From contig JAGGXV010000022.1 in NCBI GenBank assembly GCA_021162885.1, forward strand, positions 57,571-121,570: a stretch of DNA of 64,000 nucleotides, in the 5' to 3' direction. The DNA comes from a bacterium (GTDB taxonomy: Bacteria; Patescibacteriota; Minisyncoccia; Minisyncoccales; CG1-02-41-26). Under the pieces are notes generated by a model. That model was not told where the DNA came from, ran no database searches, and saw only the letters and a list, made by a program, of their open reading frames with translations. Every line of letters starts with the position of its first letter. The first letter of the stretch is position 1. The position numbers were made by a program, and so were the translations under genes. Shown here piece by piece: positions 25,795 to 49,307 of this stretch.

Positions 25795-26023
25795 CCTCTC
25801 ACCTCCATTTTCTCCCCGTCGGGCTCCAAGGCCTTAATGGGGATTGATGCGAGGCCGCTATTCGCGAAATTAGTGGTAAATTCGCGCAAATTCGCGAATA
25901 ACCACGAACACCGGCCTCGCTTCAATTATCCTAAATTACATCTCCTTTCTCAATTCACTAAAATTTAATTAATGGACTAAGAAGGAAGGTGGAAGAAAAT
26001 GGAAACTTTCTTCCACTTTATTT

Positions 26024-26395
26024 CTATTTCTTTTTGTAATAAAACTTTATCGCTTCTTCCACTATCTCAGGAAACTCCGCCTGAGGGTCTTTATCCTTTT
26101 CTGATTTCCAAATAGCAGCTCCAATTGGACAATAGCCAATTCCATAAACTGCATTTTTGCAGACCTTTGGATATTCAGGAGTGTCATGGATTTTACACCT
26201 GGCCTGAATCCATTTATTCCCTTTTTTGTGCCGTCGAACAAGATACTTACAATAGCTACAATCCGATTTCCAGGATCCATCGGGTAATTCCAAAGAATAA
26301 CTCCAACAACACCAGCCGCATCGGAGACAAATAAATGTCTCTCTTGCCATTTTCAGAAACTCCTTGAATTTCTCATAATCAAACTTTTCTGCCAT
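26024..26395 (-). CDS. YkgJ-family putative zinc/iron-chelating Cys-rich protein (CxxCGxCC, PF03692-like)
   Basis: FICLRCGWCCWSYSLELPDG...CSYCKYLV...ARCKIHDTPEYPKVCKNAVYGIGYCP. Confidence 0.55.
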   Translation of the reverse strand: MAEKFDYEKFKEFLKMARETFICLRCGWCCWSYSLELPDGSWKSDCSYCKYLVRRHKKGNKWIQARCKIHDTPEYPKVCKNAVYGIGYCPIGAAIWKSEKDKDPQAEFPEIVEEAIKFYYKKK

Positions 26396-26720
26396 TTTTT
26401 ACTCCTTATAATTTTTTTTTCAAAAGAACTATTTTTTACTCACCCTCCTTACTCAACTCCTTATTTCAGTATAAGGAACTAAGTATGAAGGGGGAAGAAA
26501 AGTAATGAGTAACTTTCTTCCCCTTTTTTTCTAATTGTCCGGGATGTCGGCCGACTTCGAAGGCGCCGACTCTGGCCCTCCCTTAAGGCACGGCTCACCA
26601 AAGGGTTCGCCGTGGAGGTTATTCGCGTAGGACCTTATTTCGGGTTACCCCTTATTCGTGTCCTACCTTATTTCCCTCACCCCAGGCACTAACCCGGCCT
26701 GGCGGGTAATTGCAGGGCGG

Positions 26721-27041
26721 TTACACCTTTACCACATCTCCTACCTTAACGGTAGGAGAGTGGCTTTCCACTACCACCCCACCCAATCTTGGGTCAAAAC
26801 ATCCGACCCAAGTAGTGGGGTGGTAGTGGTGAACCAGCGTGGCAAAAAGCCACACTGGTCCCCGCCCCGAGAGGATGACCCCTTTTTGAGGGTTGACCTC
26901 CGGGGCGGATTTCACCACCCCTTCGAGCTCTTGGGGAGTTAAACTCCCCTCGAGCTCAAACCTGACAAGCGTGAATTGCTCACGCTCATCAGGAAAAAAT
27001 TTCATTTTTCTCACCTCCTTTCCCGAATCCGCAATTTTCAT
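26721..27041 (-). CDS. Csx3/Crn3-like protein (CRISPR-associated cyclic-oligoadenylate ring nuclease / deadenylase family), standalone
   Basis: FTLVRFELEGSLTPQELEGVVKSAPEVNPQKGVILSGRGPVWLFATLVHHYHPTTWVGCFDPRLGGVVVESHSPTVKVGDVV matches the recalled Csx3 core (GV.ISGRGP.WL...LVH..H...WV..FDPRLG..VVV.SH). Alternative start M13 at about 27005. Confidence 0.5.
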   Translation of the reverse strand: MKIADSGKEVRKMKFFPDEREQFTLVRFELEGSLTPQELEGVVKSAPEVNPQKGVILSGRGPVWLFATLVHHYHPTTWVGCFDPRLGGVVVESHSPTVKVGDVVKV

Positions 27042-27092
27042 TCCGAACTCGGGAAATTAGGGAAACCCGAGAGTGTAAAGGTTTCCCTTATT

Positions 27093-27713
27093 TTATTTTT
27101 TATTATCACCTCCTTTCCAAACGACAGCATAGGGAGTGAAAAAGTAATCTGCTTCCCATCCGCCGTCGTAATTAATGTCCCCAAACCTTTTCTTCCCCAT
27201 ATAGGCAATATGCCTCAGGGGATTAAATTTTTCCGGTTTGGGTTTTATCAGCTTCCGCCCTATCCAATTCTGTCCACAAATCCACCGGTCAGCTTCTACC
27301 CAACTGTAAGCCACAACTTCAGCCCAGTTCACTTCCACAATCTGCCAGTTCACTTCCGGGTACTCTTCCTTTACCTTAGGAAAATCAGCTGCTTTTATTG
27401 CCCAGCCCCAGACTCCAGTATCTAGTACCCGCTCCGCTTGAGAATTATCGTAATTAGGATTCCGAATGAACAACAAATCCATCAGGGGACAAATCACATC
27501 TTTCCAGCCAGCAGTGGGTAGTTTCTTCCAGTTGCAGATCGGCATTCCTAACTTGCCACTCTTTTCTCCACAAATCACACATTTCCAATACACCGTTCTC
27601 CGATCAGCACAGTCCCGATAGCATCCTGCATTAACCCACGGACATTCCCCATACCTTAATGCCTTTAAGACATGGGTATGGGTTACCCCAACTTTTTTTT
27701 TCATCTTTCTCAC
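27093..27713 (-). CDS. hypothetical Cys-rich protein (island)
   Basis: 206 aa. N-terminus GECPWVNAGCYRDCADRRTVYWKCVICGEKSGKLGMPICNWKK; Trp-rich C-terminal domain. Confidence 0.4.
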   Translation of the reverse strand: MRKMKKKVGVTHTHVLKALRYGECPWVNAGCYRDCADRRTVYWKCVICGEKSGKLGMPICNWKKLPTAGWKDVICPLMDLLFIRNPNYDNSQAERVLDTGVWGWAIKAADFPKVKEEYPEVNWQIVEVNWAEVVAYSWVEADRWICGQNWIGRKLIKPKPEKFNPLRHIAYMGKKRFGDINYDGGWEADYFFTPYAVVWKGGDNKK

Positions 27714-27784
27714 CTCCCTCCAGCCAACTATTTCTAATTAACTAAAGGGAGGCGAGAAATTCCATATTCAATTTTCAAACAACA

Positions 27785-27900
27785 TCCAGTCTCCTAAACC
27801 CAGAATAATTAACATTTCGGCGCGATCGTGCCCATTTGTTAATGATTATTTCTTGTTTTAATTTTGTAACAAATCTCTGCGATCGTAAGATTTTGTTACA
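27785..27900. promoter_or_regulatory. two tandem palindromic operators with GCGATCG cores upstream of the 27713 gene
   Basis: O1 TTAACATTTCGGCGCGATCGTGCCCATTTGTTAA is a copy of R1. O2 is TGTAACAAATCTCTGCGATCGTAAGATTTTGTTACA. Confidence 0.45.
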
Positions 27901-27962
27901 CTTTATTCCGAACTTGGGAGATTGGGGAACTTAATAAGTTGTGCCTCCTTTCAGTTCCCCGG

Positions 27963-28346
27963 TTATCTATTGTTGAGAGTGCGGCGAGTCCAGTGGGGCT
28001 TCCGAAATTTTTTTACCGCTGGAAAATTCTGGAGAATTTTTTCCACTCGAGCGAGAAACTCTTTCACCAGTTCCTGCCCATTTCCATTTCGAAAAGCAAC
28101 TTCAAGCTCTGTTCCGCTCATCCACATCGGGATAATTCCTCTCTGAAGCGAATCCATTCCTTTTCCATTGAGAATCGCTTTTCTATTCACTGAGAATTGA
28201 ATCGGAAGCCAACTTCCATCGTGTCGAACCCAGAAATCTACCTTGAATTTTTCGTCTTCTGCTCGAGTAGCCCGTCGAACCTCAGTCCCGTTGCGATCCA
28301 GAAGCTCAACCATCCATTCCTCGGCCTTCAAACCGAACTTTTTCAT
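27963..28346 (-). CDS. hypothetical protein (island)
   Basis: 127 aa, no recognisable domain. Confidence 0.35.
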   Translation of the reverse strand: MKKFGLKAEEWMVELLDRNGTEVRRATRAEDEKFKVDFWVRHDGSWLPIQFSVNRKAILNGKGMDSLQRGIIPMWMSGTELEVAFRNGNGQELVKEFLARVEKILQNFPAVKKFRKPHWTRRTLNNR

Positions 28347-28468
28347 CCTTTCTCACCTCCCTTTCTTCTTTCTCAATCCCCTACCTTGTAAGGGACTAAG
28401 AAAGAAAAGGGATGGACTTTGAATTGAGTGCTTCTCTCCAGCCATCCCTTCTGGAGAGAGTTATTGAG

Positions 28469-29083
28469 TTACCATTTTCCGTTGAAAGGGTACACTTTCT
28501 CCACCCGGACATGAGAGAATAACTTAGTATTCTCTAGTCGATCCAAGGTATCCATTAGAATTTCAACCGGTTTCTTTAGGGGTTCCTTCCCAATCCAGTC
28601 ATTACCCAATTCTACAATCGCCCGCACGTAATAGGATTCCGGAGACCAAGTTTGCAAGCCCTTGGCTTCTAATCTATCCGCTGCTTCCTGATCTATCCCG
28701 ACAGACAAATTCATAAGCAAATTGCCATCGGAATTACAATATAGAAACCACTTGAAAGGATTCCCTCTATAGAATCCAGTGCCATATCCGAACCTTCTCG
28801 CCCATGCATGTTTTCCGTCCTCTTCATAAGAACTCTCGAACCTTGTCTCGCACAACTGGAAAAAACTCTCCTGTGCCTTCAATGTATACAGTTCTCCCCG
28901 CAACACCCCAGCTTCATTTTTAATCTTTACCACTTCATTTTCCAGTTCTATTCTTGCAGTTTCCAGAATCTCCACCTTTCCCTTCCATCTCTCCACTTCT
29001 TTCTGAAGAGAAGAGATATAGAATGCTCCGACTGCCACAACGACAGCCAATCCAACTGCCAGACCAATCATACCCTTAGTCAT
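28469..29083 (-). CDS. hypothetical membrane-anchored coiled-coil protein (first gene after the structured leader)
   Basis: 204 aa. N-terminal TM MIGLAVGLAVVVAVGAFYI, coiled coil, then a W/Y-rich globular domain. RBS aggaggaaaggtATG. Confidence 0.4.
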   Translation of the reverse strand: MTKGMIGLAVGLAVVVAVGAFYISSLQKEVERWKGKVEILETARIELENEVVKIKNEAGVLRGELYTLKAQESFFQLCETRFESSYEEDGKHAWARRFGYGTGFYRGNPFKWFLYCNSDGNLLMNLSVGIDQEAADRLEAKGLQTWSPESYYVRAIVELGNDWIGKEPLKKPVEILMDTLDRLENTKLFSHVRVEKVYPFNGKW

Positions 29084-29099
29084 ACCTTTCCTCCTAATT

Positions 29100-29955
29100 T
29101 TTATTCTCCTTCTATTTTAGCAAGGAGTGCACCGCGCACTTTCGGCCAACAACTTACTTTTGGACAGCAAGTGTTGGTTGGCGCGTCCGCCGATGAAAGT
29201 GCACGGGCGCACTCATTACTAAGGTTGAGAGGGGCGGAGGCGAGCGAAATTCACTTTTCTTCTCCTCGGAGAGAAAAGTCAACCTCACTCCTTATTTACG
29301 TCCCTTAGCGGGAAACCTCACATTACATTTACCCCTGATTGCCGCAACCTGTCTTTTAAGGTACTGACTCTCTCCTCTGAGAGAAGGATGGAGGAGAATT
29401 GATTAGGAACTGAGGAAGATTGAGGCCAAAATTTTTAATCTCCTAAGGGAGGGGCTTGCCTTCTTCCTCAAAGCCATTTTATTGCCTACCGAGTAAGGGC
29501 ACACAAAGCCACAAACCAAGCCAGGCATTTTAGCTCACATTCCGCTTTCAGCGAAATGACTCTCTCCTCCATCCTTCTCCCCCAGAAGTTTTTCAACCTC
29601 CGGAAGAGTTCCTTATTAAGTTGGAAGGTGCTTTCTCCTCAAAATTCTTTGAATTTTGAGGACCCCACTTTCGCCAGCGACTCCTTCCGCTTTTAGCGGG
29701 AGTCGTGCTCGCTGGCGGCCAAAGGAGACTTATCTCCTTTGGAATTCTTTTTTTTAAACAAACAGGCGGCTCTCGGAGAGAGCCGCCTGTTTGCTAAATT
29801 TTCGTTATAAAGCTCTATAACGAACGGCTTTTTTTCCGCCACGCTTTTACCGCGCGACGACTCTCTCCTCTGCCCCGTTAGATACGAAGTTATCTAACTG
29901 GGGTCTTTTTTTTTATTTTTATTTAATTTGGAAGAGCTTTTTTATTTTCTCCAGA
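29100..29955 (-). ncRNA. about 850-nt hairpin-rich untranslated leader / candidate ncRNA downstream of the triple promoter
   Basis: No ORF of 60 aa or more on the minus strand. Strong hairpins: aaacaggcggctctc..gagccgcctgttt; cgccagcgagcacgactcccgctaaaagcggaaggagtcgctggcg; ccaaaggagataagtctcctttgg; cctcaaaattcaaagaattttgagg. GAGGAGAGAGTC recurs three times; inverted copies lie about 190 bp apart. Confidence 0.3.
29873..29920 (+). terminator. plus-strand intrinsic-terminator-like hairpin plus T9 run; on the minus strand it sits just downstream of the P1 transcription start
   Basis: ccccgttagatacgaagttatctaactggggtcttttttttt. Confidence 0.35.
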
Positions 29956-29962
29956 CACTTAC

Positions 29963-29991
29963 ATTATAGCATATCGTTAAATTCTTGTCAA
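29963..29991 (-). promoter_or_regulatory. perfect consensus sigma70 promoter P1 (TTGACA-17-TATAAT)
   Basis: Minus strand ccTCTTGACAagaatttaacgatatgcTATAATgta. Confidence 0.7.
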
Positions 29992-30030
29992 GAGGTTTGA
30001 AGGAATTTTCATCTTTTTGCAACCGCTTTA

Positions 30031-30059
30031 ATTATAGTATATTTTCATATTCTTGTCAA
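30031..30059 (-). promoter_or_regulatory. perfect consensus sigma70 promoter P2 (TTGACA-17-TATAAT)
   Basis: Minus strand TTGACAagaatatgaaaatatacTATAATtaa. Confidence 0.7.
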
Positions 30060-30111
30060 GGACATTTGCATTCTTTCAACAAATTTCTTCTCACACTCTC
30101 AGACATTTTTA

Positions 30112-30140
30112 ATTATAGCAAATTGAATTAGTTTTGTCAA
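30112..30140 (-). promoter_or_regulatory. perfect consensus sigma70 promoter P3 (TTGACA-17-TATAAT)
   Basis: Minus strand TTGACAaaactaattcaatttgcTATAATtaa. Confidence 0.7.
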
Positions 30141-30159
30141 GAGCTAAACAACTTATTTA

Positions 30160-30759
30160 TTAATTAAAACCAAATCTGCGTATTTTTTCTGAGGTGCAAC
30201 AAATTTTTTGTGCATTCTTAACGCTCTTTAGCCATTGCCAAAGAACGCTCTCTTTCGTTCTTCCTCTTTCTTTAATGTCTCGATTCATTCTTCTTTGAAG
30301 CCGTAATTTTTCGGGAGCTTCCACAAACACTTTAAGATCAAGTTCTCCTCTCAAAGCCCTATTTAAAGCAAATAACCCCTCAACAATTATCACTTTTGAG
30401 GGGAAATAACTCTCATACCTCACTCTTTTGCGAATAACAAAATTATAAACTGGCTTTCTTATTACCTTACCTTTTTTCAAAAGTTTAAGATGTTTTTTTA
30501 ACAAACTCATCTCAAAAGCCGAGGGACAGTCAAAATTTCTATCTTTCATCTTATCAATTCCAATATAATAGTCATCCATTAGAAAAATTTTAGCCCCTGT
30601 AGCTTTTGAAATGGCTACCGCTACATATCCCTTTCCTGAACCAGAACCTCCAGCAATTCCAATAATAACTACTCCTTTTCCTTTTTCTATTAGTTCTTTT
30701 ATGGAATCTATGATTTTATTAATTCCCTGTTTTAGATTAAATATTTTTTTCTTCCTCAT
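30160..30759 (-). CDS. udk: uridine kinase / phosphoribulokinase-family nucleoside kinase
   Basis: P-loop VVIIGIAGGSGSGKGYVAVAISK; PRK/Udk-like fold. Confidence 0.6.
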   Translation of the reverse strand: MRKKKIFNLKQGINKIIDSIKELIEKGKGVVIIGIAGGSGSGKGYVAVAISKATGAKIFLMDDYYIGIDKMKDRNFDCPSAFEMSLLKKHLKLLKKGKVIRKPVYNFVIRKRVRYESYFPSKVIIVEGLFALNRALRGELDLKVFVEAPEKLRLQRRMNRDIKERGRTKESVLWQWLKSVKNAQKICCTSEKIRRFGFN

Positions 30760-30794
30760 GAAACCTCACTCAGTTTTTTCTTTTGTTTCTTCCT

Positions 30795-31370
30795 TCACCT
30801 CTTTTTTTCCTTATCTTCAGAGGGAGCACTCGCTTTCAGGATGGTATCTGGTGTTTCAGCGGAAGCTTCAGCAGCGACGGATTTCTTCTCTTCTTTCGGC
30901 TCTTCCTCTTGTTTCTCTTTCTGGGTTTTTGGTTGTTTTGGTGGAGTTTTTTCTTCTTTCACCTCTTCTTTTGGTTGCTCTTCTTCCTTTTTTTCCTTTT
31001 CTGGTTCTTTCGATGCCTCTCCAGATGGCACCTCTTTCCCTTTTTCTTCAGTTTCTCTGGCTTCAGCTTTTTCCTCTTTTGCTGCCTCTTTTTCTTTCTT
31101 TTTTGACTTTTTATGAACATCTATTTTCTTTCCTTTAATAATCCCCTCCTTTACTAATAAATTATGAACACTTTCAGATGGTTGAGCGCCAACACCTAAC
31201 CAATGTTTAATGCGTTCTGCCTTCAATTTTTTCTCTTTAGTTAGAGGATTAAAAAATCCAAGAATTTCCAAAAACCTGCCACCTCTTGGTGGATTCTTTT
31301 TGTCGGTAACCACTATTCTGAAAAATGGCTGATTCTTTTTTCCAGTGCGTAAGAAACGAATGACTAACAT
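30795..31370 (-). CDS. rpsP: 30S ribosomal protein S16 with about 100-aa K/E-rich C-terminal extension
   Basis: MLVIRFLRTGKKNQPFFRIVVTDKKNPPRGGRFLEILGFFNP... then KEKEAAKEEKAEARETEEKGKE... tail. Confidence 0.85.
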   Translation of the reverse strand: MLVIRFLRTGKKNQPFFRIVVTDKKNPPRGGRFLEILGFFNPLTKEKKLKAERIKHWLGVGAQPSESVHNLLVKEGIIKGKKIDVHKKSKKKEKEAAKEEKAEARETEEKGKEVPSGEASKEPEKEKKEEEQPKEEVKEEKTPPKQPKTQKEKQEEEPKEEKKSVAAEASAETPDTILKASAPSEDKEKKR

Positions 31371-31380
31371 AGCTAATAAT

Positions 31381-31535
31381 TTTCAACTTACAATTTTCAA
31401 CTTACAATTTTCAATTTTCAATCAAGCTCCAATTTTCCAATTTTCAATGAAATTCACTCCGAGATTAGCAAAGAACTGTTTGAAAATTGGGTAATTGAAA
31501 ATTCATTGATAATTGGTCATTGAAAATTGATAATT
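31381..31535. repeat. intergenic inverted-repeat element built from ATTTTCA / TGAAAAT heptamer repeats (family seen at many intergenic sites)
   Basis: Left arm (t)tttcaacttacaattttcaa... Right arm ...tgaaaattgggtaattgaaaattcattgataattggtcattgaaaattga. Can fold into a long imperfect hairpin. Confidence 0.6.
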
Positions 31536-31539
31536 TAAT

Positions 31540-32259: not shown

Positions 32260-32307
32260 AAGGAAGATTGAATTTTATCTTGGGTTACAAGTTACACGTT
32301 ACAAGTT

Positions 32308-33284: not shown

Positions 33285-33324
33285 ATAACCACTTTAACAA
33301 ATGTTAAAAATTTTTCAAGGGTTG

Positions 33325-33450
33325 CTAATTTTCAATTTACAATTTACAATTTTCAATCAAATCCCAATTTTCAATTTTCAATTATCGTTTGAAAATTAAA
33401 TCATTAAAAATTCATTGAAAATTGGTCATTGAAAATTGAGAATTTCCTTC
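33325..33450. repeat. intergenic heptamer inverted-repeat element (ATTTTCA...TGAAAAT)
   Basis: ttgctaattttcaatttacaatttacaattttcaatcaaatcccaattttcaattttcaattatcgtttgaaaattaaatcattaaaaattcattgaaaattggtcattgaaaattgagaattt. Confidence 0.6.
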
Positions 33451-38039: not shown

Positions 38040-38118
38040 AAGAGAAATAATTTTCAATTTTCAATTATCAATTTTCAATTTTCATTGAATTCCCAATTTT
38101 CAATTTTCAAACTTAAAA
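38040..38118. repeat. ATTTTCA heptamer repeat array between dnaE and thrS
   Basis: aattttcaattttcaattatcaattttcaattttcattgaattcccaattttcaattttcaaac. Confidence 0.6.
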
Positions 38119-38119
38119 T

Positions 38120-39868
38120 ATGTCAATAAAAATTGATACCATTAGACACTCCCTTGCCCATATTCTAGCTGCGGCGGTTCAGGAATTATATCCTGGAGCT
38201 AAGTTTGGAATTGGACCGTCGATTGAGAATGGATTCTACTATGACTTTGACCTACCCAAAACTTTGACTCCCAAAGATTTACCGAAAATTGAGAAAAAGA
38301 TGAGAGAACTAATTAAACAGGACATCAGATTTGAAAAGAAAATTATTTCAAAAAATGAAGCGAAAAAGATATTTAAAGCACAACCCTATAAATTGGAATT
38401 AACAGAACAAAAATCAAAAATACCTATTAAAAATCAAATTAAAAATCAAAAATTGTCTATTTATAAACTCGGGAATTTTATTGACCTTTGCAAAGGGCCT
38501 CATGTTAAATCAACAAAAGAAATCAGCCCAGAAATATTTAAATTAACCAAAATCGCCGGCGCTTACTGGAAAGGTTCAGAAAAAAATCCAATGCTAACCC
38601 GTATTTATGGAGTAGCTTTCCGAACCAAAAAAGAATTAGAAAATTATTTAAAAATTCAAAAAGAAGCCGAAAAAAGAGACCATCGAATTTTAGGCCAAAA
38701 ACTAGCACTTTTTGTGTTTGACGAGGAAGTCGGAGCCGGCCTCCCTCTATGGCTTCCAAAAGGTGAAACTCTGCGCCATATTATTGAAGAATATCTTTAC
38801 CGTGAATTAAAATCTCAAGGATACCTTTGGGTAAGAACTTCTCATATTGGTCGACTAAAACTTTGGAAAACTTCGGGACATTGGGAACTTTACAGAGAAA
38901 ACATGTACTCTCCTATTGAAATTGAGGGAGAAAAATACTTATTGAAACCAATGAATTGTCCTTTCCATGTAAAAATTTATAAGTCAAAAATTCGCTCTTA
39001 CAAGGATTTGCCTTTTCGATTGGCTGAATTGGGAACTGTTTACCGCTACGAAAAATCCGGAGTTTTACACGGTTTAACCAGGGTTCGCGGTTTTACTCAA
39101 GATGACGCTCATATTTGGTGCACTCCCGAGCAACTAAATGCAGAACTCGAAAGGATTCTGAAATATGGATTAAAAATTCTAAAAGCATTTGGTTTCAAAG
39201 ATTTTAATATTTATTTGTCAACTAGACCGGAAAAATATGCCGGAACTTCCAAAGGTTGGCAAAAAGCAACAAATTGCTTGAAGTATGTTTTGAAAAAACT
39301 TAAATTGGAATATCAAATTGACAAAGGTGGTGGAGTTTTTTATGGGCCAAAAATAGATATTAAAATAAAAGATAGCTTGGGTAGAGAATGGCAATGCACA
39401 ACAATTCAGGTTGATTTTAATTTACCCGAACGTTTTAAAATAACCTATATTGACAAAAACGGTAAAAAGCGTCAACCAATTATGATTCATCGAGCTCTCC
39501 TGGGTTCTTTGGAAAGATTTATTGGAGTTTTACTTGAACATTATGGAGGAGCCTTACCTTTATGGCTCTCCCCTGAACAGTTTTGGGTAATTCCAGTAGG
39601 CACCGTCCATCGAAAGTACGCTAAAGAAATCACTGAAAAACTGAAATCAGAAGGTTTAAGAGTTAAAACGAAAATCGAAGCTGAAACTGTTTCCAAAAAA
39701 ATAAGAGATGGTGAAATCCAAAAAATCCCCTATCTTTTAGTTGTTGGCGACAAAGAACTGGCTGAGAAAAATGTCAGAGTCCGTAAGCGCGCCAAGGGCG
39801 ACTTAGGACAAATGTCCTTGACAAGGTTCTTAGAAAAAGCGAAAATGGAAATAGAACAAAAAAGCTAA
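38120..39868 (+). CDS. thrS: threonyl-tRNA synthetase
   Basis: Editing-domain HSLAHILAAAV; class II motifs; anticodon-binding domain. Confidence 0.9.
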   Translation: MSIKIDTIRHSLAHILAAAVQELYPGAKFGIGPSIENGFYYDFDLPKTLTPKDLPKIEKKMRELIKQDIRFEKKIISKNEAKKIFKAQPYKLELTEQKSKIPIKNQIKNQKLSIYKLGNFIDLCKGPHVKSTKEISPEIFKLTKIAGAYWKGSEKNPMLTRIYGVAFRTKKELENYLKIQKEAEKRDHRILGQKLALFVFDEEVGAGLPLWLPKGETLRHIIEEYLYRELKSQGYLWVRTSHIGRLKLWKTSGHWELYRENMYSPIEIEGEKYLLKPMNCPFHVKIYKSKIRSYKDLPFRLAELGTVYRYEKSGVLHGLTRVRGFTQDDAHIWCTPEQLNAELERILKYGLKILKAFGFKDFNIYLSTRPEKYAGTSKGWQKATNCLKYVLKKLKLEYQIDKGGGVFYGPKIDIKIKDSLGREWQCTTIQVDFNLPERFKITYIDKNGKKRQPIMIHRALLGSLERFIGVLLEHYGGALPLWLSPEQFWVIPVGTVHRKYAKEITEKLKSEGLRVKTKIEAETVSKKIRDGEIQKIPYLLVVGDKELAEKNVRVRKRAKGDLGQMSLTRFLEKAKMEIEQKS

Positions 39869-39869
39869 T

Positions 39870-39965
39870 TATCAATTATCAATTATCAATTTCCAATTTT
39901 CAATTTTCAATCATTGTTTAAAGTTAATTCGTTGAAAATTGGTCATTGAAAATTGAGAATTTTAA
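39870..39965. repeat. heptamer inverted-repeat element (AATTATC/ATTTTCA...TGAAAAT)
   Basis: taattatcaattatcaattatcaatttccaattttcaattttcaatcattgtttaaagttaattcgttgaaaattggtcattgaaaattgagaatttta. Confidence 0.6.
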
Positions 39966-41805: not shown

Positions 41806-43167
41806 ATGAAGTATTTTATCATTACATACGGCTGTCAAATGAACAAATCGGACTCTGAACGAATTGCTGCTGTTTTAGAAAAAATCGGTTACAAAAATGC
41901 CTCAAAGATAGATGAGGCAGATTTAATTGTGGTTAATATGTGCTCTGTCAGGCAATCAGCAGTTGATAGAGTTTACGGACTTCAACCAATGTTTAAAACT
42001 CTAAAAACTAAAAACTACAAACTACAAACTATTTTAACTGGTTGTATTCTAAAAAAAGATAGAAAAAAATTTATTGAATATTTTGATTATATTTTAAATA
42101 TCAAAAATCTAACAAGATGGTCTAAAGTCCTTGCTACCCCAAACTCACTTAACCAATCCACGATCGTTAGTGATTTAAGTCAATCTGGAAATTACCTTAA
42201 AATTAAGCCAGAATATTCATCTTTTCCAATAGGCTATGTGCCTATTTCTACTGGCTGTAATAACTTCTGTTCTTATTGCGTTGTCCCCTATACTCGGGGC
42301 CCCGAGATTTGTCGGCCGGTAAAAGATATTATATCTGAAGTAAGAGATTTAGTGAAAAAAGGATATAAAGAGATTTGGTTGTTGGGACAAAATGTTAATA
42401 GTTACAACTCCCAAATATCCATAAATGTGAATTCGCGAATATCCGCGAATAAAATTCGTGAAGATTCACGAGATATAAATTTTCCAAAACTCTTAAAAAT
42501 AATCAATAATATTCCGGGGGATTTTTGGATTAGGTTCACTTCTTCCCATCCGAAAGATTTTTCTGATGAATTAATTGAAGCAATGTCCCGCTGCAAAAAA
42601 ATAACTCCCTATTTAAATCTGCCAGTCCAGTCAGGAGATAACGAAATCTTGAAAAAGATGAATCGGAATTATACAGTTGAGTATTATAAAAATTTAGTTA
42701 AAAAAATCCGTCAGACATTCGCAAAAATTCGTGGTAAATCCGTGTCTATTAGTATTTCAACCGACATCATTGTTGGGTTTCCGGGCGAAACTAAAAAACA
42801 ATTCAAAAATACTGTTCGCCTTTTCAAAGAAATCAAATTCGATATGGCTTACATCGCCCAATACTCTCCTCGTCCCGGGACTGCTGCCTTTAAGATGAAA
42901 GACGATGTCACAAAAGAAAAAAAGAGAGAAAGAGAGAAAATTTTAACTGAGGTTTTAAAGAAAACCGCTCTGGCAAAAAATAAAAAATTAATCGGCAAAA
43001 CAATCACCATCTTGCCAAGTGAATATAAAAATGGATTTTTAATCGGCAAATCTTTTCATTACAAAACGGTAAAATGGGTGGGCTCAAAAGATCTAATCGG
43101 CAAATTCGTTAGAGTAAAAATCACCGATGCTCAACCATGGGGATTAAAAGGAAAATTACTAAAATAA
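41806..43167 (+). CDS. miaB: radical-SAM methylthiotransferase MiaB (MiaB/RimO family) with TRAM domain
   Basis: MTTase N-domain; CNNFCSYCVVPYTRG (CxxxCxxC). miaA is adjacent. Contains in-frame ATTCGCGAAT-family insert (NSRISANKIREDSRD). Confidence 0.8.
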   Translation: MKYFIITYGCQMNKSDSERIAAVLEKIGYKNASKIDEADLIVVNMCSVRQSAVDRVYGLQPMFKTLKTKNYKLQTILTGCILKKDRKKFIEYFDYILNIKNLTRWSKVLATPNSLNQSTIVSDLSQSGNYLKIKPEYSSFPIGYVPISTGCNNFCSYCVVPYTRGPEICRPVKDIISEVRDLVKKGYKEIWLLGQNVNSYNSQISINVNSRISANKIREDSRDINFPKLLKIINNIPGDFWIRFTSSHPKDFSDELIEAMSRCKKITPYLNLPVQSGDNEILKKMNRNYTVEYYKNLVKKIRQTFAKIRGKSVSISISTDIIVGFPGETKKQFKNTVRLFKEIKFDMAYIAQYSPRPGTAAFKMKDDVTKEKKREREKILTEVLKKTALAKNKKLIGKTITILPSEYKNGFLIGKSFHYKTVKWVGSKDLIGKFVRVKITDAQPWGLKGKLLK

Positions 43168-43194
43168 AAAGTGCCTATATATCAACTTTCTTGA

Positions 43195-43635
43195 TTATAG
43201 GCACTTAGCAAATACGATAACCATAAGGCCTATCTTTCCTGTATTCCCAGCAAGAATAAGAGTTAATCCATAATACCAAGGGACTCTCGCTAGTTTTACA
43301 GCAACAATTGTCGCTGGAGTCACATAAGGTATGTAAGGAATTAAGTTTAGGGTAGCTAAAAATAAATAAAAGAATAGATTTCCCCTTAATTGAGATATCT
43401 TTTCTCCCCATTTCTTAGCTAATTGACTTAATTTTAGCCGCTTTCTTATCATATCTATTCCTTTGAAAATTCCGCTAAAAAGTAAGTAGTTCAGTATCAC
43501 TAATCCGTCTGAAATTATAACCATTACCAAAAATGTATACATACCTTCTTTTCCTGCTTCTATCCAAGAGATAATAGCAAAATCTGTATAAGTAAAAGCT
43601 AACAACCAATTTATAATTTCCCAAAAAGCTTTCAT
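43195..43635 (-). CDS. hypothetical membrane protein
   Basis: 146 aa, 4 TM helices. Confidence 0.35.
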   Translation of the reverse strand: MKAFWEIINWLLAFTYTDFAIISWIEAGKEGMYTFLVMVIISDGLVILNYLLFSGIFKGIDMIRKRLKLSQLAKKWGEKISQLRGNLFFYLFLATLNLIPYIPYVTPATIVAVKLARVPWYYGLTLILAGNTGKIGLMVIVFAKCL

Positions 43636-43705
43636 TTTCTCCTCCTTTTTAAATTTTTAAAGTAATTACTTTGTTAATTTACTACCTTATATTTTAATAA
43701 ATATT

Positions 43706-44611
43706 ATGTCAAGGATAACGAAAAAACTTATTGTTATTTTAGGACCTACTGCTTCAGGTAAAACTGCTTTATCTATAAAACTTGCTAAAAATTTTAATGG
43801 CGAAATTGTTTCAGCCGATTCAAGGCAGGTTTACAAAGGAATGAACATTGGAACTGGAAAAGTAACAAAAAAAGAAATGCAAGGAATCAAACATTATCTT
43901 TTGGATGTTGCTTCGCCAAAAAGACGATTTTCAGTCGCCCAATACCAAAGGTTAGCTCTTGAGGCAATAAATAAAATTTTGAAAAAAAATAAAGTCCCCT
44001 TTTTGGTCGGTGGTTCGCCTTTTTATATTTACTCGGTAGTTGAAAAATGGATTTTTCCTAAACTTAAACCAGACCAGAAATTAAGAAAGGAATTAGAAAA
44101 AAAATCAGCAAAAGAACTTTTTCAAATATTAAAAAAATTAGATTCAAAAAGAGCGAAAACAATTGAGAAAGAAAATAAAAGAAGATTAATTAGAGCGATT
44201 GAAATTGCTAAAAAATTAGGAAGGGTTCCGCTATTAAAAAAAACTCCCCAATTTAATTGTTTACTGATAGGGATTAAAAAATCTAAAGAAGAACTTAAAA
44301 AATTAATTGAAAAGCGTCTCTTGAAAAGATTAAAAAAAGGAATGATAGAAGAAGTTAGAAAATTAAGAAGAGAAGGACTTTCTTGGCAACGTCTTGAAGA
44401 ATTTGGATTAGAATATCGCTGGATTGCAAAATATCTCCAAGGAAAAATAGATTATGAAGAAATGATAAAGAATCTCCAAAAGGATATTGAACATTTTGCC
44501 AAACACCAGATGACTTGGTTCAAAAAAGATAAAAGAATTAAATGGACGCCATCCACCCACCATCCTTATAGGTGGGCAAAAAAATTAATAAAAGAATTTT
44601 TAAAAAAATAA
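43706..44611 (+). CDS. miaA: tRNA dimethylallyltransferase MiaA
   Basis: LIVILGPTASGKTALSIKLAKNFNGEIVSADSRQVYKGMNIGTGK. Confidence 0.85.
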   Translation: MSRITKKLIVILGPTASGKTALSIKLAKNFNGEIVSADSRQVYKGMNIGTGKVTKKEMQGIKHYLLDVASPKRRFSVAQYQRLALEAINKILKKNKVPFLVGGSPFYIYSVVEKWIFPKLKPDQKLRKELEKKSAKELFQILKKLDSKRAKTIEKENKRRLIRAIEIAKKLGRVPLLKKTPQFNCLLIGIKKSKEELKKLIEKRLLKRLKKGMIEEVRKLRREGLSWQRLEEFGLEYRWIAKYLQGKIDYEEMIKNLQKDIEHFAKHQMTWFKKDKRIKWTPSTHHPYRWAKKLIKEFLKK

Positions 44612-44768
44612 AGAGGAGGGTTTCAGAACCTCCTCTTTTCGTTAATTAGCTTTTTCCTTCTTTTTCTTTTTTCCTTTTTCTGTAAAAAAATCACAATAGC
44701 TCCTTTTTTAATCGCTGTGAAAGAAATAGGTGTTTCTCCTTCACCTTCTAGATTTACTAATACCTCAT

Positions 44769-45002
44769 TTACCTCATTTTCCATTTTTTCCCTTCCTCCT
44801 TTCTTTCTAAATTTTGTTTTATCTTTCTCTCTCTTCTTTGCCACCTTCTTAATGATTTCTTTTTCCTGATCCGCCTTTCCTTACTTGGTGAAATTCTCTC
44901 CCGATGTCTTCTCATATCTTTTGACAAACCACTCTCCTCGCAGAGAGATTTAAAGTATTTTAACGCCTGATGCAAAGATCCATCTACTTTTATTTCAATC
45001 AT
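44769..45002 (-). CDS. rpsU: 30S ribosomal protein S21
   Basis: MIEIKVDGSLHQALKYFKSLCEESGLSKDMRRHRERISPSKERRIRKKKS... matches S21 (ALRRFKRSCEKAG...RRREFYEKP). Confidence 0.65.
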   Translation of the reverse strand: MIEIKVDGSLHQALKYFKSLCEESGLSKDMRRHRERISPSKERRIRKKKSLRRWQRRERKIKQNLERKEEGKKWKMR

Positions 45003-45040
45003 ACATCTCACCTCCTTTTTAAAAGATCATTATTTAAATC

Positions 45041-46144
45041 TTATAAATAAATCTTTTCAATAAGATATTTTGTTCCAGAAACGTTTAACTTTTGGAAAAA
45101 GAATCGGAATTTCTCTTCCAATTCCTCGCAAATTTTATCAATGTTTTTTTGAGGAATACTCCAGATATCTTTTTTGAAAGCACCTAAAGCTCTTTTTCTA
45201 AATTTGTAAATAAATTGTTCCTCGGAATCGGACGGTTTTTTCTTTTTCCAGAATTTCTCTTTTAACCAAGAATATATTTTCTCTCTCAAATCTTTTGGAA
45301 AATAATCAGAATCGTAAATTATATTTTGAAATTGAGTGGCCAAGTGAATTTCGCAACAGCCGGTTTTTGGAAACCTCTCAAAATATTTTTCAGGAAGTGT
45401 TGAAGCTCCATGCTGGACAGCCCCGGCCATACCATACTTTTTAGCTTCTCTTGATAATTCTGTCAAGGTGTCAAAATCAGCTTCAATCTGTTTAAGATGA
45501 CCCGAAGGAAGAACAATCCCGCCGTGTGAGGTACCGGTTTGAACCGCAACTTTAATTATTCCTTTAACTCCTTTATATTTCGAGATTTCGCTTTGATAAG
45601 TTTTAGCAAACTCTTTGAATTCTTCTGAAGTGGTATTTTTACCCCCTATCTTACTTATTTCCCCGCCAATTGTAATTTCGATTGACTTTGGTTGTAAATT
45701 TCTTATAAAAAAAGTTAAACTTGCTGTTTTTTTAGCATTTTCTTTTAAATTATCAAAAACTGAGCCATCAATATCGATATTAAAAAAACCTGCCTTAATT
45801 GATTCTTTGATTAGATTTTTTAAATTTTTTGAGTTTGCTTTAAAATGATCTCCCTGAAAAAAAAGAGGCCCCTCAAATTTTTCTTTAAGGGCCGCCTCAG
45901 TCACATTTTTAACATATTCTTTTGGAGATTGATCGGTATAATTTATTTCCGATTGAGCAAGTTCTAAAATAAAAGCTCCCGCCTCTTCTTTTTTTGCTGC
46001 TCTAAAAAGGGCTCGAGCAACATCGAAAGTTAAAGTTCTTATATTAAAAGCAGGAACAGTAAATCCTTTGAATTCTCCTTTGGCTATTTTTTCATAAAGT
46101 TTTTGCGTTGAAGTTAAAACCATAGCTTCCAAACAAACTTCCAC
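45041..46144 (-). CDS. class II aldolase family protein (FBA/tagatose-bisphosphate aldolase-like)
   Basis: FNIRTLTFDVARALFRAAKKEEAGAFILELAQSE and VQTGTSHGG / AVQHGASTLP resemble class II FBA motifs; weak. Confidence 0.45.
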   Translation of the reverse strand: MEVCLEAMVLTSTQKLYEKIAKGEFKGFTVPAFNIRTLTFDVARALFRAAKKEEAGAFILELAQSEINYTDQSPKEYVKNVTEAALKEKFEGPLFFQGDHFKANSKNLKNLIKESIKAGFFNIDIDGSVFDNLKENAKKTASLTFFIRNLQPKSIEITIGGEISKIGGKNTTSEEFKEFAKTYQSEISKYKGVKGIIKVAVQTGTSHGGIVLPSGHLKQIEADFDTLTELSREAKKYGMAGAVQHGASTLPEKYFERFPKTGCCEIHLATQFQNIIYDSDYFPKDLREKIYSWLKEKFWKKKKPSDSEEQFIYKFRKRALGAFKKDIWSIPQKNIDKICEELEEKFRFFFQKLNVSGTKYLIEKIYL

Positions 46145-46149
46145 ACCCC

Positions 46150-46182
46150 CCCCCGCAGCGTGCCCGCTGCGGGGGGTCGTGC
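46150..46182. repeat. isolated GC-rich perfect hairpin
   Basis: ccccccgcagcgtgcccgctgcgggggg between gatB stop and next start. Confidence 0.5.
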
Positions 46183-46184
46183 AT

Positions 46185-47753
46185 TTATTTTTGCTTTACT
46201 AATAATTTTTTAAGAAGTTGAAGAATTATTTGTGGATTTGCCTTGCCTTTGGTTTCTTTCATCACTTGACCAACCAAAAATTGCAAAGCGGCTTCTTTTC
46301 CTTTTTTATAATCCTCCACTGGTTTTTTATTTTTATCAATCACTTCTCCAACTATTTTCTCCAACTCTTCTTCATCACTTATTTGTCTTAACCCCTTATC
46401 TTTCACAATCTGGGAAGGGTCTTTGCCAGTGCCAAACATTTCTTTTAATAAAGTTTTGGCAATTTTACTTGAGATTTCGCCAAGATAAATCATACTGACA
46501 AATTCAGCAAAATTTTCAGCAGTAATTAAAAAGTTCTTGTCACTAACAGAAACTCCCTTCAAAAGTCCCTGGAGATCAGTTGTTATATAATTTGAGGCCA
46601 ACTTAACTAATTTTTTAAGTTCTCTATTCTTAACTTTCTCTTTAAATCTCTTTTCTTTAACCCAATTAGTCAATTCTGAAATCACTTTTTCAAAGTATTC
46701 TCCCAAATCTTTCTGAGAAACATAAAGTTCTATTTCTTTATCAGAAAGCCCGTATTCCTTTTCAAACCTCTCTCTCCTCGATTGAGGTAATTCGGGAATT
46801 TCCATTTTAATCTCTTTTAAAAACTCTTTTTTAAGATTTAGAGGTGGCAAGTCAGGCTCTGGAAAATAGCGATAATCATAGGCCTCTTCCTTTTCCCTTT
46901 GAGCCAATGTTATTTCTTTTTTCTCGTCCCAGCCCCTGGTTTCCTGAACAATTTTTTTGCCTTTTTTTAAAATTTCACTCTGTCTTTTAATCTCATATTC
47001 AATTGCCTTCTCTACTGCCCTTAAAGAATTCAAATTTTTTATTTCCACTTTCGTCCCCAATGTTCGCGAATTTGCACGAATTTTATTCGCGGATATTCGC
47101 GAATTTTCATCCGTGGGCATTAGCGAGATATTTACTTCCGCCCTCATCTCCCCTTTCTCCATATTAGCTCCAGAAACACCTAAATATCTTAAAATCAGTT
47201 GCAACTCATGAACAAATGCGCGAGCTTCTGCAGCTGATTCAATATCCGGCTCGGTTACCAACTCCATTAAAGGAATTCCAGCTCTGTTAAAGTCCACTAA
47301 AGAATAATCTTTTCCTTCAGGATGTATTAGTTTTCCAGTATCTTCTTCCAAATGAATGCGTTGAATTCTTATCTTCTTTAATTTTTTATTTTTAATTTTA
47401 TTTTTTGAGATTTGAGATTTGAGATTTGAGATTTCAAGATAGCCCCCTTTGCCCAACGGAGCATTATACTGTGATATTTGATATCCTTTTGGTAGGTCAG
47501 GATAAAAATAATTTTTCCTTTCAAAATGGGTTGCTTTTTGAATCTGACAATTCAAAGCTATCGCAGTCTTTATCGCTTTTCTTACAGCAGTTTTGTTAAT
47601 AACCGGTAATGTTCCTGGATGTGCCACGCAGATTGGACAGATGTTCACATTCGGTTGAGTTTCATCAGGATCATTTTCACAAGAACAAAACATCTTGGAT
47701 TTTGTCCTAAGTTCCACATGTATTTCCAGACCAATTGTTGGCTTATAGTTCAT
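46185..47753 (-). CDS. gatB: aspartyl/glutamyl-tRNA amidotransferase subunit B
   Basis: MNYKPTIGLEIHVELRTKSKMFCSC...; contains two in-frame repeat inserts (GAGATTT array and ATTCGCGAAT family, ENSRISANKIRANSR). Confidence 0.9.
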   Translation of the reverse strand: MNYKPTIGLEIHVELRTKSKMFCSCENDPDETQPNVNICPICVAHPGTLPVINKTAVRKAIKTAIALNCQIQKATHFERKNYFYPDLPKGYQISQYNAPLGKGGYLEISNLKSQISKNKIKNKKLKKIRIQRIHLEEDTGKLIHPEGKDYSLVDFNRAGIPLMELVTEPDIESAAEARAFVHELQLILRYLGVSGANMEKGEMRAEVNISLMPTDENSRISANKIRANSRTLGTKVEIKNLNSLRAVEKAIEYEIKRQSEILKKGKKIVQETRGWDEKKEITLAQREKEEAYDYRYFPEPDLPPLNLKKEFLKEIKMEIPELPQSRRERFEKEYGLSDKEIELYVSQKDLGEYFEKVISELTNWVKEKRFKEKVKNRELKKLVKLASNYITTDLQGLLKGVSVSDKNFLITAENFAEFVSMIYLGEISSKIAKTLLKEMFGTGKDPSQIVKDKGLRQISDEEELEKIVGEVIDKNKKPVEDYKKGKEAALQFLVGQVMKETKGKANPQIILQLLKKLLVKQK

Positions 47754-47887
47754 ACAAAAATGAATGACTAATTAACCTAATCAATATCAATGGCCAATGT
47801 CTAATGACTAAATGACCAAAATTAAATAAAGATTAGACATTTAGGAATTGGGATTTGATTAGAAATTAGCCATTAGAAATTAGGAAT

Positions 47888-48550
47888 TTACTTTTTCTTC
47901 CTCTTGTATTGTTTCATTATCTCAACTCCCAAGCTTGTCCCAATGATGTCAGCTCCCGCTTCAACCATCATTAACAAATCTTTGTAAGTTCTGATCTTTC
48001 CAGAGGCCTTTATTTTCAACCCCGGCGCCCCCTCTCTCATAATTTTTAAATGCTTGGCTTTTTCTTTTAATTCAATATGCTCTAAGGGGTCTTTCTCAGT
48101 AGCTGTTTTCACACAAAAAGCACCAGCTTTCTTAACTATTTCTGAGGCCTTTTTGATCTCTTCATCAGTTAAATATCCCGAACCAATAATTACTTTAGTG
48201 GGTAAAATTTTGCAGATTTCCTTCAAATCCTTTAAGATATCGTCGTATCTTCCATATTTCATATCAATAATATTCATTACAATATCCAATTCATCTGCTC
48301 CATCTTTTTTGGCTTTTTTGCACATTTCCACTCTTTTTGAATGAGAACTTAACCCCATTGGTGGATCAATTAGAACAACCGTTTTAACACCCGCGCTCTT
48401 CAACTCATTATGAACCAACCTAACCCATTCTGGATTGCAACAAACTCCCCGAAATTTATATTTTTTAGCCTCTTGACAGGTTTTTTTAATATCTTTCTCT
48501 CTCGCTTTTGGGTCTATATTTGTATGGTCAATAATTTTTGCTGGATTCAT
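47888..48550 (-). CDS. deoC: deoxyribose-phosphate aldolase
   Basis: Schiff-base lysine region FCVKTATE and ...KIKASGKIRT...GADIIGTSLG. Confidence 0.7.
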   Translation of the reverse strand: MNPAKIIDHTNIDPKAREKDIKKTCQEAKKYKFRGVCCNPEWVRLVHNELKSAGVKTVVLIDPPMGLSSHSKRVEMCKKAKKDGADELDIVMNIIDMKYGRYDDILKDLKEICKILPTKVIIGSGYLTDEEIKKASEIVKKAGAFCVKTATEKDPLEHIELKEKAKHLKIMREGAPGLKIKASGKIRTYKDLLMMVEAGADIIGTSLGVEIMKQYKRKKK

Positions 48551-48593
48551 AACTTCGCTAATTTGCCAAAATTTGACTCGCGAATATTCGCAA

Positions 48594-49307
48594 CTAACTT
48601 ATTCGTGAAATTCGTGGTAAATTAGTGGATATTCGCGATTTAATGTCTTTAAAAACTTCTTTAATAGACCTTTCTCCATTTATCGTATATACATTTTCAA
48701 ACCGAGAAGGTAAAATTTTGTAAATTTGCCAAACTTTTTTAAGTTTTTCTTTCACCTCAAAAAGGGTTCTATCCGTCCCCCTTTTTTGAATCCTCTTTAA
48801 ACAAACTTCGGGAGAAACCACTAAAATAAAAGTTAAATCAGGCAGTAAAAACTCATCATTTATTTTAATCAACCAATTTAAATCTAATCCTTCTGCTGTT
48901 CCATAAGCAAAGCTTGAAAAGAAATAACGGTCAGAGACAACAATTTTATTTCTTTTTAAAGCTGGAATTATTACATTTTTCTGGTGCCAATCTCTATCTT
49001 TAGCAAATAACTCTTGAAGTTCTTGTGAAGAAATTTTTTCTTTTTTAGTTAAGATTTTCTCGATTTTCTTTCCTGCTTTCGAATCTTTTGTCGGTTCTTT
49101 TGTTTTTAAAACCTGATATCCTTTCTTTTTTAAAAATCCGGTTAAAAGTTCAACCTGAGTTGACTGCCCCGACCCATCCAGTCCCTCAAAAACAACAAAC
49201 CTCGCACTTTTTACCCGACGCAAAATAGGCTTACCATCCAATGAAATAAACCATGTTTTTTGAAAAAGGTACGGGGTAAGTTTTCTCAGGTAAGAGTTTT
49301 TAATCAT
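48594..49307 (-). CDS. tmk: thymidylate kinase
   Basis: FVVFEGLDGSGQSTQ P-loop. C-terminal tail ...NLPRISRIS is encoded by ATTCGCGAAT-family repeats; N-terminal 34 aa may be an extension. Confidence 0.8.
   Translation of the reverse strand: MIKNSYLRKLTPYLFQKTWFISLDGKPILRRVKSARFVVFEGLDGSGQSTQVELLTGFLKKKGYQVLKTKEPTKDSKAGKKIEKILTKKEKISSQELQELFAKDRDWHQKNVIIPALKRNKIVVSDRYFFSSFAYGTAEGLDLNWLIKINDEFLLPDLTFILVVSPEVCLKRIQKRGTDRTLFEVKEKLKKVWQIYKILPSRFENVYTINGERSIKEVFKDIKSRISTNLPRISRIS

Follow-up and report, generated by a model that had tools for sequence, protein, structure and literature searches.

Why do two unrelated essential genes, gatB and miaB, carry the same 31 nucleotides in frame, with related sequence at the end of a third gene and in a GC-rich island nearby? 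We examined this in a 64,000-nt stretch of DNA from a bacterium of the Patescibacteria group (the window, in whose numbering all positions are given), which we compared with other loci (L numbers) and with homologous proteins (P numbers). The window repeats are worn copies of a palindromic element, about 80 bases long, that is found widely among Patescibacteria (Candidate Phyla Radiation). In its full form the family is a cassette, with a gene for a GxxExxY protein of the PD-(D/E)XK nuclease type (PF13366/TIGR04256) between these arms. The window copies are derivatives lacking an open reading frame (ORF), with a genome-specific CAC to CGC (GTG to GCG) variant of the units. On balance, we favour the view that the family consists of ORF-less derivatives of a nuclease-carrying hairpin element, analogous to the Rickettsia palindromic elements (RPEs) and to REPIN/RAYT systems.

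One hairpin family in the window and beyond

The 31-mer AATTCGCGAATATCCGCGAATAAAATTCGTG had exactly two occurrences in the window, at 42430–42460 (plus strand) and 47075–47105 (minus strand), and none in shuffles. The palindrome ATTCGCGAAT was present three times versus 0.11 expected, and clusters of at least three ATTCGYG-type units stood at exactly four sites (25860–25899, 42431–42470, 47065–47125 and 48556–48637), compared with a mean of 0.46 in the shuffled window. A profile of 21 canonical relatives (nhmmer) recovered all four of these copies, A–D (Table 1), which we also aligned unit by unit to the GatB copy of L035. Their ordered C[AG]CNAAT then ATTNG[TC]G units, spaced 9–12 nt apart between termini TCGC...GCGA, place them in a CACNAAT/ATTNGTG hairpin family. 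The four or five window sequences are one family: one full-length copy, three shortened ones and one solo arm. The initial annotation, made from the window sequence, had recognised a dispersed family, and the exact 31-mer pair together with the related copies in the tmk tail and the GC-rich island bears this out. Its claims that the repeats reside in essential genes without breaking them (the reading frames are intact and the peptides are as it gave them) and that the action is at the DNA level, not in a conserved peptide, also stood. The family unit it proposed, a palindrome of about 30 nt, has to be replaced by an 82-nt hairpin of 4+4 seven-nt units, of which ATTCGCGAAT is only the centre; in this genome the canonical CACGAAT/ATTCGTG units have a CGCG variant, and ATTCGCGAAT palindromes arise where such units abut.

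The canonical form was defined by scanning a metagenome collection for the right-arm module ATTCGYGAAATTNGTGGN{2,5}ATTNGYG, which is present in at least 120 stretches versus an estimated one or so by chance. The element is 82 nt long, with four seven-nt units in each arm (CACNAAT on the left, ATTNGTG on the right). The left arm runs TCGCNAAT, CACNAAT, (G/C)CACNAAT, TCACNAAT and the right arm is its mirror image (ATTNGTGA, ATTNGTGG, ATTNGTG, ATTNGCGA); unit starts lie 9–12 nt apart and the loop is 0–5 nt in most canonical copies, whose consensus is TCGCGAATTTACACGAATTTGAGCACGAATATCACGAATAATTATTCGTGAAATTTGTGGTCAAATTCGTGAATATTCGCGA. Among the matches listed, 21 distinct canonical copies followed this one plan, with sharp termini and unrelated flanks, and no direct repeat indicating a target-site duplication flanked any of them. 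Their contigs had a GC content of 32–46%, similar to the window, and half copies and decayed copies were common.

Canonical copies favour two kinds of place. Nine of these 21 fill a gene junction exactly: relative to the element start, the upstream stop is at −8 to +4 (often as the TAA within TCGCTAAT), and relative to its end, the downstream ATG is at −1 to +8. Five of the 21 lie in frame inside genes. In-frame hosts among the matches listed were GatB, MiaB, UvrB, RecG, a MurE-type ligase, LepA and a glycosyltransferase, and a half copy was found in MiaA; coding copies all stay open through 60–450 nt. Viral contigs gave only two matches, one of them duplicating L027, which does not indicate a phage vector. 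Rfam covariance models had no relevant match at gathering score or E ≤ 5 in 42000–49000, and no Rfam family covered the elements at the 20 loci scanned. The 20-mer ATTCGCGAATATCCGCGAAT had a single match in genome contigs, in an Opitutaceae genome and at chance level. A literature survey of incomplete coverage turned up no account of these elements or of repeats flanking GxxExxY genes.

Some compared loci showed further arrangements. UvrB in L014 and L079 has inserts derived from the element at two separate places, first SRIGTNLTTNFTNIREI and farther along NNTRMISNEKRIFDKNSLPFEKNSG; in L031, an apparent rplE (ribosomal protein L5) has a canonical element on each side. In L082, L098, L022 and L129, partly GC-rich contigs, long tandem ATTCGTGGACAAA or ATTCGTGTAATTCGTGGTTACCATTAGTGTA arrays repeat the same 7-nt unit head to tail, with no hairpin arrangement.

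Table 1 Copies of the hairpin element in the window, with matches to the profile of canonical relatives
Feature	Position	Strand	Description	Profile match
Copy A	25851–25921 including clamp; arm 25859–25897		Solo right arm	Positions 43–82, E=4e-7
Copy B	42410–42472	+	Shortened element, in frame in MiaB loop between GQNVNSY and NFPKLL	42410–42469, E=0.003
Possible fifth copy	42717–42755	+	Right-arm-like array in miaB	nhmmer E=0.025, borderline
Copy C	47056–47126	-	In frame in GatB loop between EVNISL and LGTKVEIKN	E=2e-5
Copy D	48555–48638		tmk/deoC junction, full length	Positions 1–82, E=1.8e-11

Each window copy could be read against this plan, and every one folds better than its own shuffles (z=−3.2 to −6.8). 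Copy D (RNA fold −21.6 kcal/mol, z=−4.0) has decayed left-arm units and a right arm of ATTCGTGA, ATTCGTGG, ATTAGTGG and ATTCGCGA. It supplies the final 14 codons of Tmk (48594–49307, minus strand), whose protein end ...SRISTNLPRISRIS precedes a TAG stop at 48594–48596, and the deoC start codon (48548–48550) lies 4 nt beyond the end of the copy, following the canonical stop-to-start habit. Its identity to the orthologous copy in L047, the closest relative found, is about 95%, against 72–79% for flanks and genomes.

Copy C consists of left units TCGCTAAT, CACGGAT, TTCGCGAAT and CCGCGAAT, an AAA loop, and right units ATTCGTG and ATTCGCGA; it matches the canonical L035 GatB copy unit by unit, minus right units 1–2, and its first unit, TCGCTAAT, encodes the conserved Ser-Leu of GatB. 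In copy B the first left units are degenerate and are followed by TTCGCGAAT and CCGCGAAT, then by an AAA loop and by ATTCGTGA and ATTCACGA. The resulting inserts read ...ENSRISANKIRANSRT... in GatB (46185–47753, minus strand) and ...NVNSRISANKIREDSRDI... in MiaB (41806–43167, plus strand), and both appear as alignment gaps of 12–14 residues (14 in MiaB) against solved GatB and MiaB structures. Each holds the shared 31-mer, made up of two left units, one right unit and the loop between them. Another organism (L073) has this short subtype, TCGCGAATAT(T/C)CGCGAATAAA, in MurE, so that the 31-mer is a heritable short variant and not two local accidents. The same MiaB loop holds a canonical copy in the same frame in L093 (SRIRTNLPQISRIKNKKSSDISGKFVQISD). 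The possible fifth copy has units ATTCGCA, ATTCGTGG, ATCCGTG and ATTAGTA, is in frame in MiaB (FAKIRGKSVSIS) and adds about seven residues, again as an alignment gap against solved MiaB homologues.

Copy A is intergenic, with a minus-strand ORF of the GC-rich island on each side. Its units at 25860–25897 are ATTCGCGA, ATTAGTGG, ATTCGCG and ATTCGCGA, with one left-type unit, CCACGAAC, in addition, and its arm is almost the same as the right arm of the GatB copy in L005. A 9-bp GC-rich inverted repeat, GCGAGGCCG/CGGCCTCGC, flanks it at 25851–25859 and 25913–25921, and the strong RNA fold (−45.9 kcal/mol, z=−6.8, minus strand) is mostly owed to this clamp. The initial annotation had taken the inverted repeat as a sign of a transposition- or recombination-based origin. 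The repeat does bracket the island copy, but it is no feature of the family, whose canonical copies end TCGC...GCGA; such an origin is still the most reasonable reading, although the flanking repeat lends it no support.

The GatB loop proved to be a hotspot for insertion. We compared 119 close GatB homologues with a parsable loop between EVNISL and LGTKVEIKN. The loop was 5–7 residues long in 54 of them, the others had inserts of up to 41 residues and one had 149; the loop of the window GatB (NCBI MCD6500816.1, nearest relatives labelled Patescibacteria, Gribaldobacteria or Paceibacterales) is 20 residues. Occupancy is patchy across the GatB tree: P0032, P0039, P0099, P0117 and P0037 are scattered on a neighbour-joining tree and carry peptides like IREISGQIRADSR or IRENSRL. 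At the DNA level, the inserts of L003, L005 and L006 have CACGAAT units in the left arm and ATTCGTG/ATTCGCG units in the right arm, and canonical 4+4 copies occupy the same GatB site in L035, L005, L006, L003 and L112. The L035 and L005 elements differ at 5 of 81 positions by our own count, with gatB itself 69–77% identical. In L047 the loop (1882–2004) holds an insert unrelated to these, in which the GC-rich hairpin CCCCATTCCGC-ttcca-GCGGAATGGGG stands twice in tandem and which matches the P0007-type peptide ...FRGPHSAGSGMGQESSFQWSPFRWKRNGAG..., and the conserved Ser-Leu is encoded as TCACTC, not TCGCTAAT. This different insert and these different Ser-Leu codons imply that the GatB site was filled more than once. 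The inserts had initially been taken as lineage-specific, but they are not: members of the family occupy these loops of GatB and MiaB in relatives with a DNA identity of only 64–70%. The peptide NSRISANKIR is, as had been supposed, not literally conserved in distant orthologues; peptides encoded by the element do, however, reappear in their corresponding loops, since the element itself is present there in the DNA.

The window GatB also has further lineage-specific insertions, at 47330–47430 and in other segments; they include SQISKNKIKNKKLKK and about 20 extra residues in the helical domain. In many GatB relatives, loops have K/S/Q-rich inserts (KSQKSKVKSQK, LKSKIQN...), by appearance the products of further families of short-unit repeats.

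A GxxExxY nuclease gene between the arms

The 149-residue GatB insert (P0114, locus L001) is a complete GxxExxY PD-(D/E)XK domain, in frame and flanked by left-arm ACGAAT units and right-arm ATTCGA units. The predicted GatB (L001:2285–4210) has 641 residues, of which the nuclease domain makes up about 120, with the catalytic D...ExK intact. GxxExxY genes close to that of L001 occupy the interval from tsf to pyrH in L007 and L011 and that from nusG to rplK in L009 and L010, in both cases with CTAAT/CGAAT arrays upstream and ATTAG/ATTCG arrays downstream.

The association was not confined to these genes. Among the matches listed, a GxxExxY ORF adjoins an arm at 14 loci, and such ORFs lie between identical 4-unit arms in L017, L019, L025, L048, L070, L078, L102 and L118. 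Seven of these loci (L019, L025, L048, L070, L078, L102 and L118) have exactly the same anatomy: four left units, the ORF, four right units and the ATG of murC or efp. The ATG of the cassette ORF lies in the spacer between left units 2 and 3, and its TAG stop lies inside the first right unit, ATTAGTGA. Within the same set of matches, 9 of the 12 ORFs enclosed by a left and a right array encode GxxExxY proteins and the remaining three are ordinary genes between two separate elements; no other type of ORF was found in the loops, in particular no four-helix-bundle "IVS protein" (from intervening sequences, IVS). GxxExxY genes also share contigs with in-frame short copies in L014 and L096.

The function of PF13366 is listed as "unknown" (PMC3424549). 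D69, E79 and K81 are invariant across 35 homologues, and a structure model (predicted local distance difference test score 93) matches restriction-endonuclease-like folds. The fold search returned only generic PD-(D/E)XK neighbours at template-modelling scores of about 0.45–0.55, from which no specific substrate can be inferred, and a sequence search of the PDB gave nothing significant. A profile search recovered 3,664 proteins, almost all free-standing and 122–165 residues long; one among the best 120 of the 3,664 (P0172, 282 residues) combines GxxExxY with a RuvX/YqgF (PF03652) domain.

To what kind of constraint are the arms subject? In an RNAalifold analysis of 18 canonical copies, 3-bp CAC/GUG and AAU/AUU helices were split by a 1×1 mismatch, all 18 predicted pairs were invariant with no compensatory changes, and the consensus energy was only −6.1 kcal/mol. 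Since the pairs are all invariant, covariation neither supports nor excludes an RNA structure. The central N of paired units was Watson–Crick in only 3–4 of 17 copies, which is about random. Pair invariance, the free central N and conservation of the elements far beyond their flanks point to sequence-specific recognition of CAC-N-AAT sites, with the hairpin potential probably a by-product of inverted site arrays. Alternatively, the arms could owe their conservation to being re-copied often from a conserved source. An element driven by a nuclease would fit either reading.

Origin and spread of the elements

In behaviour, the closest known system is the RPEs. These are described as short palindromic repeats, some intergenic and many in frame in unrelated housekeeping genes, which are not inactivated and gain a stretch of peptide that their fold tolerates (Ogata et al. 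2000 and 2002, summarised in PMC10969869). As described there, RPEs are about 100–150 bp long, restricted to Rickettsia and without a known partner gene (PMC10969869); by these published descriptions, the present family is set apart by its 7-nt units with a free central base, its ORF-bearing form and its strict stop-to-start habit, and a kinship in sequence was neither seen nor expected.

In organisation, REPIN/RAYT systems come closest (PMC3116915, PMC3337134), with dispersed hairpin doublets, inverted repeats flanking the gene of a small enzyme presumed to move them, no target-site duplication and high conservation within a lineage. RAYT, however, is an HUH tyrosine (Y1) transposase, whereas the gene flanked here encodes PD-(D/E)XK GxxExxY, in 9 of 12 enclosed ORFs among the matches listed, and no Y1/HUH gene lay between the arms. 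REPINs are also extragenic with one REP per arm, whereas the elements described here occur in coding loops as well and have four ordered sites per arm. Classical MITEs (miniature transposable elements with inverted repeats; Correia, ERIC; PMC10969869) are likewise small and ORF-less, with terminal inverted repeats, many copies and sometimes in-frame fusions. MITE-like size and inverted arms are present here, and the arms are shared with the GxxExxY cassette. The cassette gene is not a known transposase; no relative of a DDE transposase was seen, and the 21 canonical copies among the matches listed lack the target-site duplication. As a positive control, a 150-bp MITE in L026, L041, L085, L095, L116, L128 and about 10 more loci showed clear 9-bp target-site duplications. 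This MITE (for example, L041:7278–7427) has terminal inverted repeats of about 26 bp (GGGCGTATCTACAAGTTGGGGGAG...), lies in GC-rich contigs (median 59% GC) and carries a CGAAT/ATTCG unit hairpin only as an internal module.

Intervening sequences of 23S rRNA that carry an ORF (Coxiella IVS/S23p, PMC4990558) also resemble the family, as selfish hairpins with an optional loop ORF in a tolerated loop of an essential gene. They lie in rRNA helices and are excised by RNase III, whereas the hosts here are protein genes and junctions and the ORF family is different; no rRNA was found in the window or in 20 element-bearing loci scanned. The genes of homing endonucleases, among them PD-(D/E)XK types like I-Ssp6803I, are likewise small nuclease genes within conserved host genes, with a proposed spread by cleavage and copy repair without duplications. 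Unlike these, the present elements have an 8-site palindrome and no intron or intein frame, they occupy many unrelated target sites, and their ORF-less copies vastly outnumber the ORF-bearing ones. TIGR-Tas arrays have a 36-nt period and a different organisation.

These comparisons suggest how the elements might spread. The units would be bound by a protein that recognises their sequence, most likely the GxxExxY nuclease. Once a site is cut, copying from a second element (by homing or gene conversion and with no target-site duplication) would both spread the elements and homogenise the copies, which would explain the identical 31-mer of gatB and miaB. Copies would survive only where an 80-nt palindrome is harmless in a compact genome, that is, exactly between a stop and the next start codon, where the base of the hairpin joins stop and start and translational coupling may stay intact, or as an open frame in a protein surface loop, where the effect on the host protein would probably be a neutral extension by 12–30 hydrophilic residues. 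For mobility we count the patchy GatB loop, the other element in L047, the L073 MurE subtype and the 31-nt identity between two genes. That the GxxExxY nuclease itself binds the units and drives the copying is a suggestion we make tentatively, with rather less than even confidence.

Several explanations other than a mobile element have to be weighed. The elements could serve the host in cis, as binding sites or RNA hairpins for processing, stability or translational coupling of operon mRNA at junctions, like repetitive extragenic palindromic sequences and bacterial interspersed mosaic elements (REP/BIME), with the coding copies and the GxxExxY gene as side issues. Their precise stop-to-start placement would suit such a role, as would conservation far beyond that of the flanking genes, a second hairpin family with the same habit in the same window and the better-than-shuffled folds of the window copies. 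However, many copies lie in the coding sequence for loops of unrelated proteins, where a role at junctions is out of the question, orthologous sites are patchily occupied and the L047 GatB site holds an unrelated hairpin, no compensatory changes speak for an RNA structure, and half and decayed copies are common; we regard this role as unlikely, if a serious candidate. Removal at the RNA level, by RNase III for example, would mean that the inserts never reach the protein or only modulate mRNA half-life, and a hairpin with an optional loop ORF does parallel 23S rRNA intervening sequences such as that of Coxiella (PMC4990558). Yet the coding copies all stay open, as only translation would lead one to expect; mismatches recur every 7 nt in a weak consensus helix, and neither the window nor the 20 loci scanned offered an rRNA context. 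No mRNA religation pathway of this kind is known in bacteria, moreover, and we consider RNA-level removal improbable.

Patescibacteria are thought to depend on DNA uptake, and the uptake sequences of Neisseria also occur as inverted pairs near gene ends. The units could on these grounds be uptake or genome-wide signal sequences (DNA uptake sequences, uptake signal sequences, Chi), gathered by biased uptake or repair and pairing by chance. We rejected this idea, which we consider very improbable: isolated units in the window are not enriched (42 outside the elements versus 49 ± 7 in first-order Markov simulations), units occur only in ordered 4+4 arrays with fixed spacing and defined termini, and the inserts add 12–30 residues instead of recoding existing sequence. 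Least credible of all is a local origin, either by slippage or duplication in place with retention for the peptide, to which the common frame (NSRISANKIR) in gatB and miaB would testify, or through restriction-modification, TCGCGA being a known type of restriction site. Against this, the element is found with the same nucleotides outside coding DNA, in other reading frames and at 120 or more unrelated loci. The initial annotation had proposed looking for a restriction-modification system recognising TCGCGA, an NruI-type site; 7 of 11 such sites in the window are inside elements and the other four compare with 5.1 expected, and with TCGCGA at expectation outside the elements we rejected this idea too. 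The canonical relatives have GTG, not GCG, so that most of them lack TCGCGA and the NruI-type site is a local variant.

Some observations weigh against a nuclease-driven mobile element, the reading we favour. The window copies have no ORF, and tblastn with the GxxExxY domain found nothing significant in the 64-kb window; in the few cases available, the flavours of the arms (CACGAAT, CTCTAAT, ACGAAT) show no obvious tracking of GxxExxY clades; and no presence/absence polymorphism was found between near-identical genomes. Host genes were assigned from ORF calls and sequence recognition and are uncurated, and the nuclease activity, binding and movement are predictions from sequence and a structure model. 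The association could also run the other way, the gene being a passenger that lands in hairpin loops, and identical sites in distant lineages could reflect an ancient insertion under strong purifying selection for a host function, not ongoing copying.

With these points in mind, we offer a broader conjecture, which we think somewhat less likely than not: the GxxExxY proteins, with thousands of members, may power an undescribed class of selfish element. Such an element would have a nuclease gene in the loop of an eight-site palindrome, and its ORF-less copies would settle at stop/start junctions and in surface loops of essential proteins throughout Patescibacteria, with copying triggered by the nuclease, and no target-site duplication, to spread and homogenise them. 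If so, such elements would be a main source of lineage-specific loop insertions in core proteins of Patescibacteria. The family would explain the short, hydrophilic, lineage-specific insertions in conserved enzymes of this group (GatB, MiaB, UvrB, RecG, MurE, LepA) as well as the repeats that fill its tiny intergenic spacers, and it gives the GxxExxY family a candidate job, the binding or cutting of CACNAAT-site arrays. It would be a second, independent case beside Rickettsia of palindromic selfish DNA in essential genes, here with a candidate enzyme, whereas RPEs are without one. In practical terms, the extended C-termini and fused ORFs that come with the elements can mislead gene callers, and the elements mark permissive insertion sites in essential proteins.

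Other features of the window

A second hairpin family, with AATTTTCAA / TTGAAAATT units, is present at 31392–31535, 33327–33444, 38054–38136, 39874–39961 and 58445–58584. Its arms are 30–57 nt long and 74–87% complementary, and each element fills a stop-to-start spacer. The initial annotation had called the two families independent, which is doubtful, as the AATTTTCAA-unit elements share the architecture and the filling of junctions; they may be a sister flavour of the ATTCG family, with units that also end in AAT and begin with ATT.

The GC-rich island (24000–30000) has a GC content of 44–47%, versus about 34% elsewhere. The sole Pfam match among its minus-strand ORFs is a Csx3 homologue (PF09620, E=8e-30) at 26721–27041. 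It is bordered by a PIN-domain gene on the left (23533–23904) and by a 21-nt, 90% complementary hairpin on the right (29754–29798). Towards the end of the window, a group I intron (Rfam RF00028, 69 bits, 63100–63347) within 63050–63372 (minus strand) interrupts the anticodon loop of a tRNA with anticodon CAT, for which ARAGORN made no call; the split tRNA reads GCGGGGTGGAGAAGT...GGCCCATAA before the intron and CCTCGAGACCTGGGTGCAATTCCCAGCCCCGCA after it.

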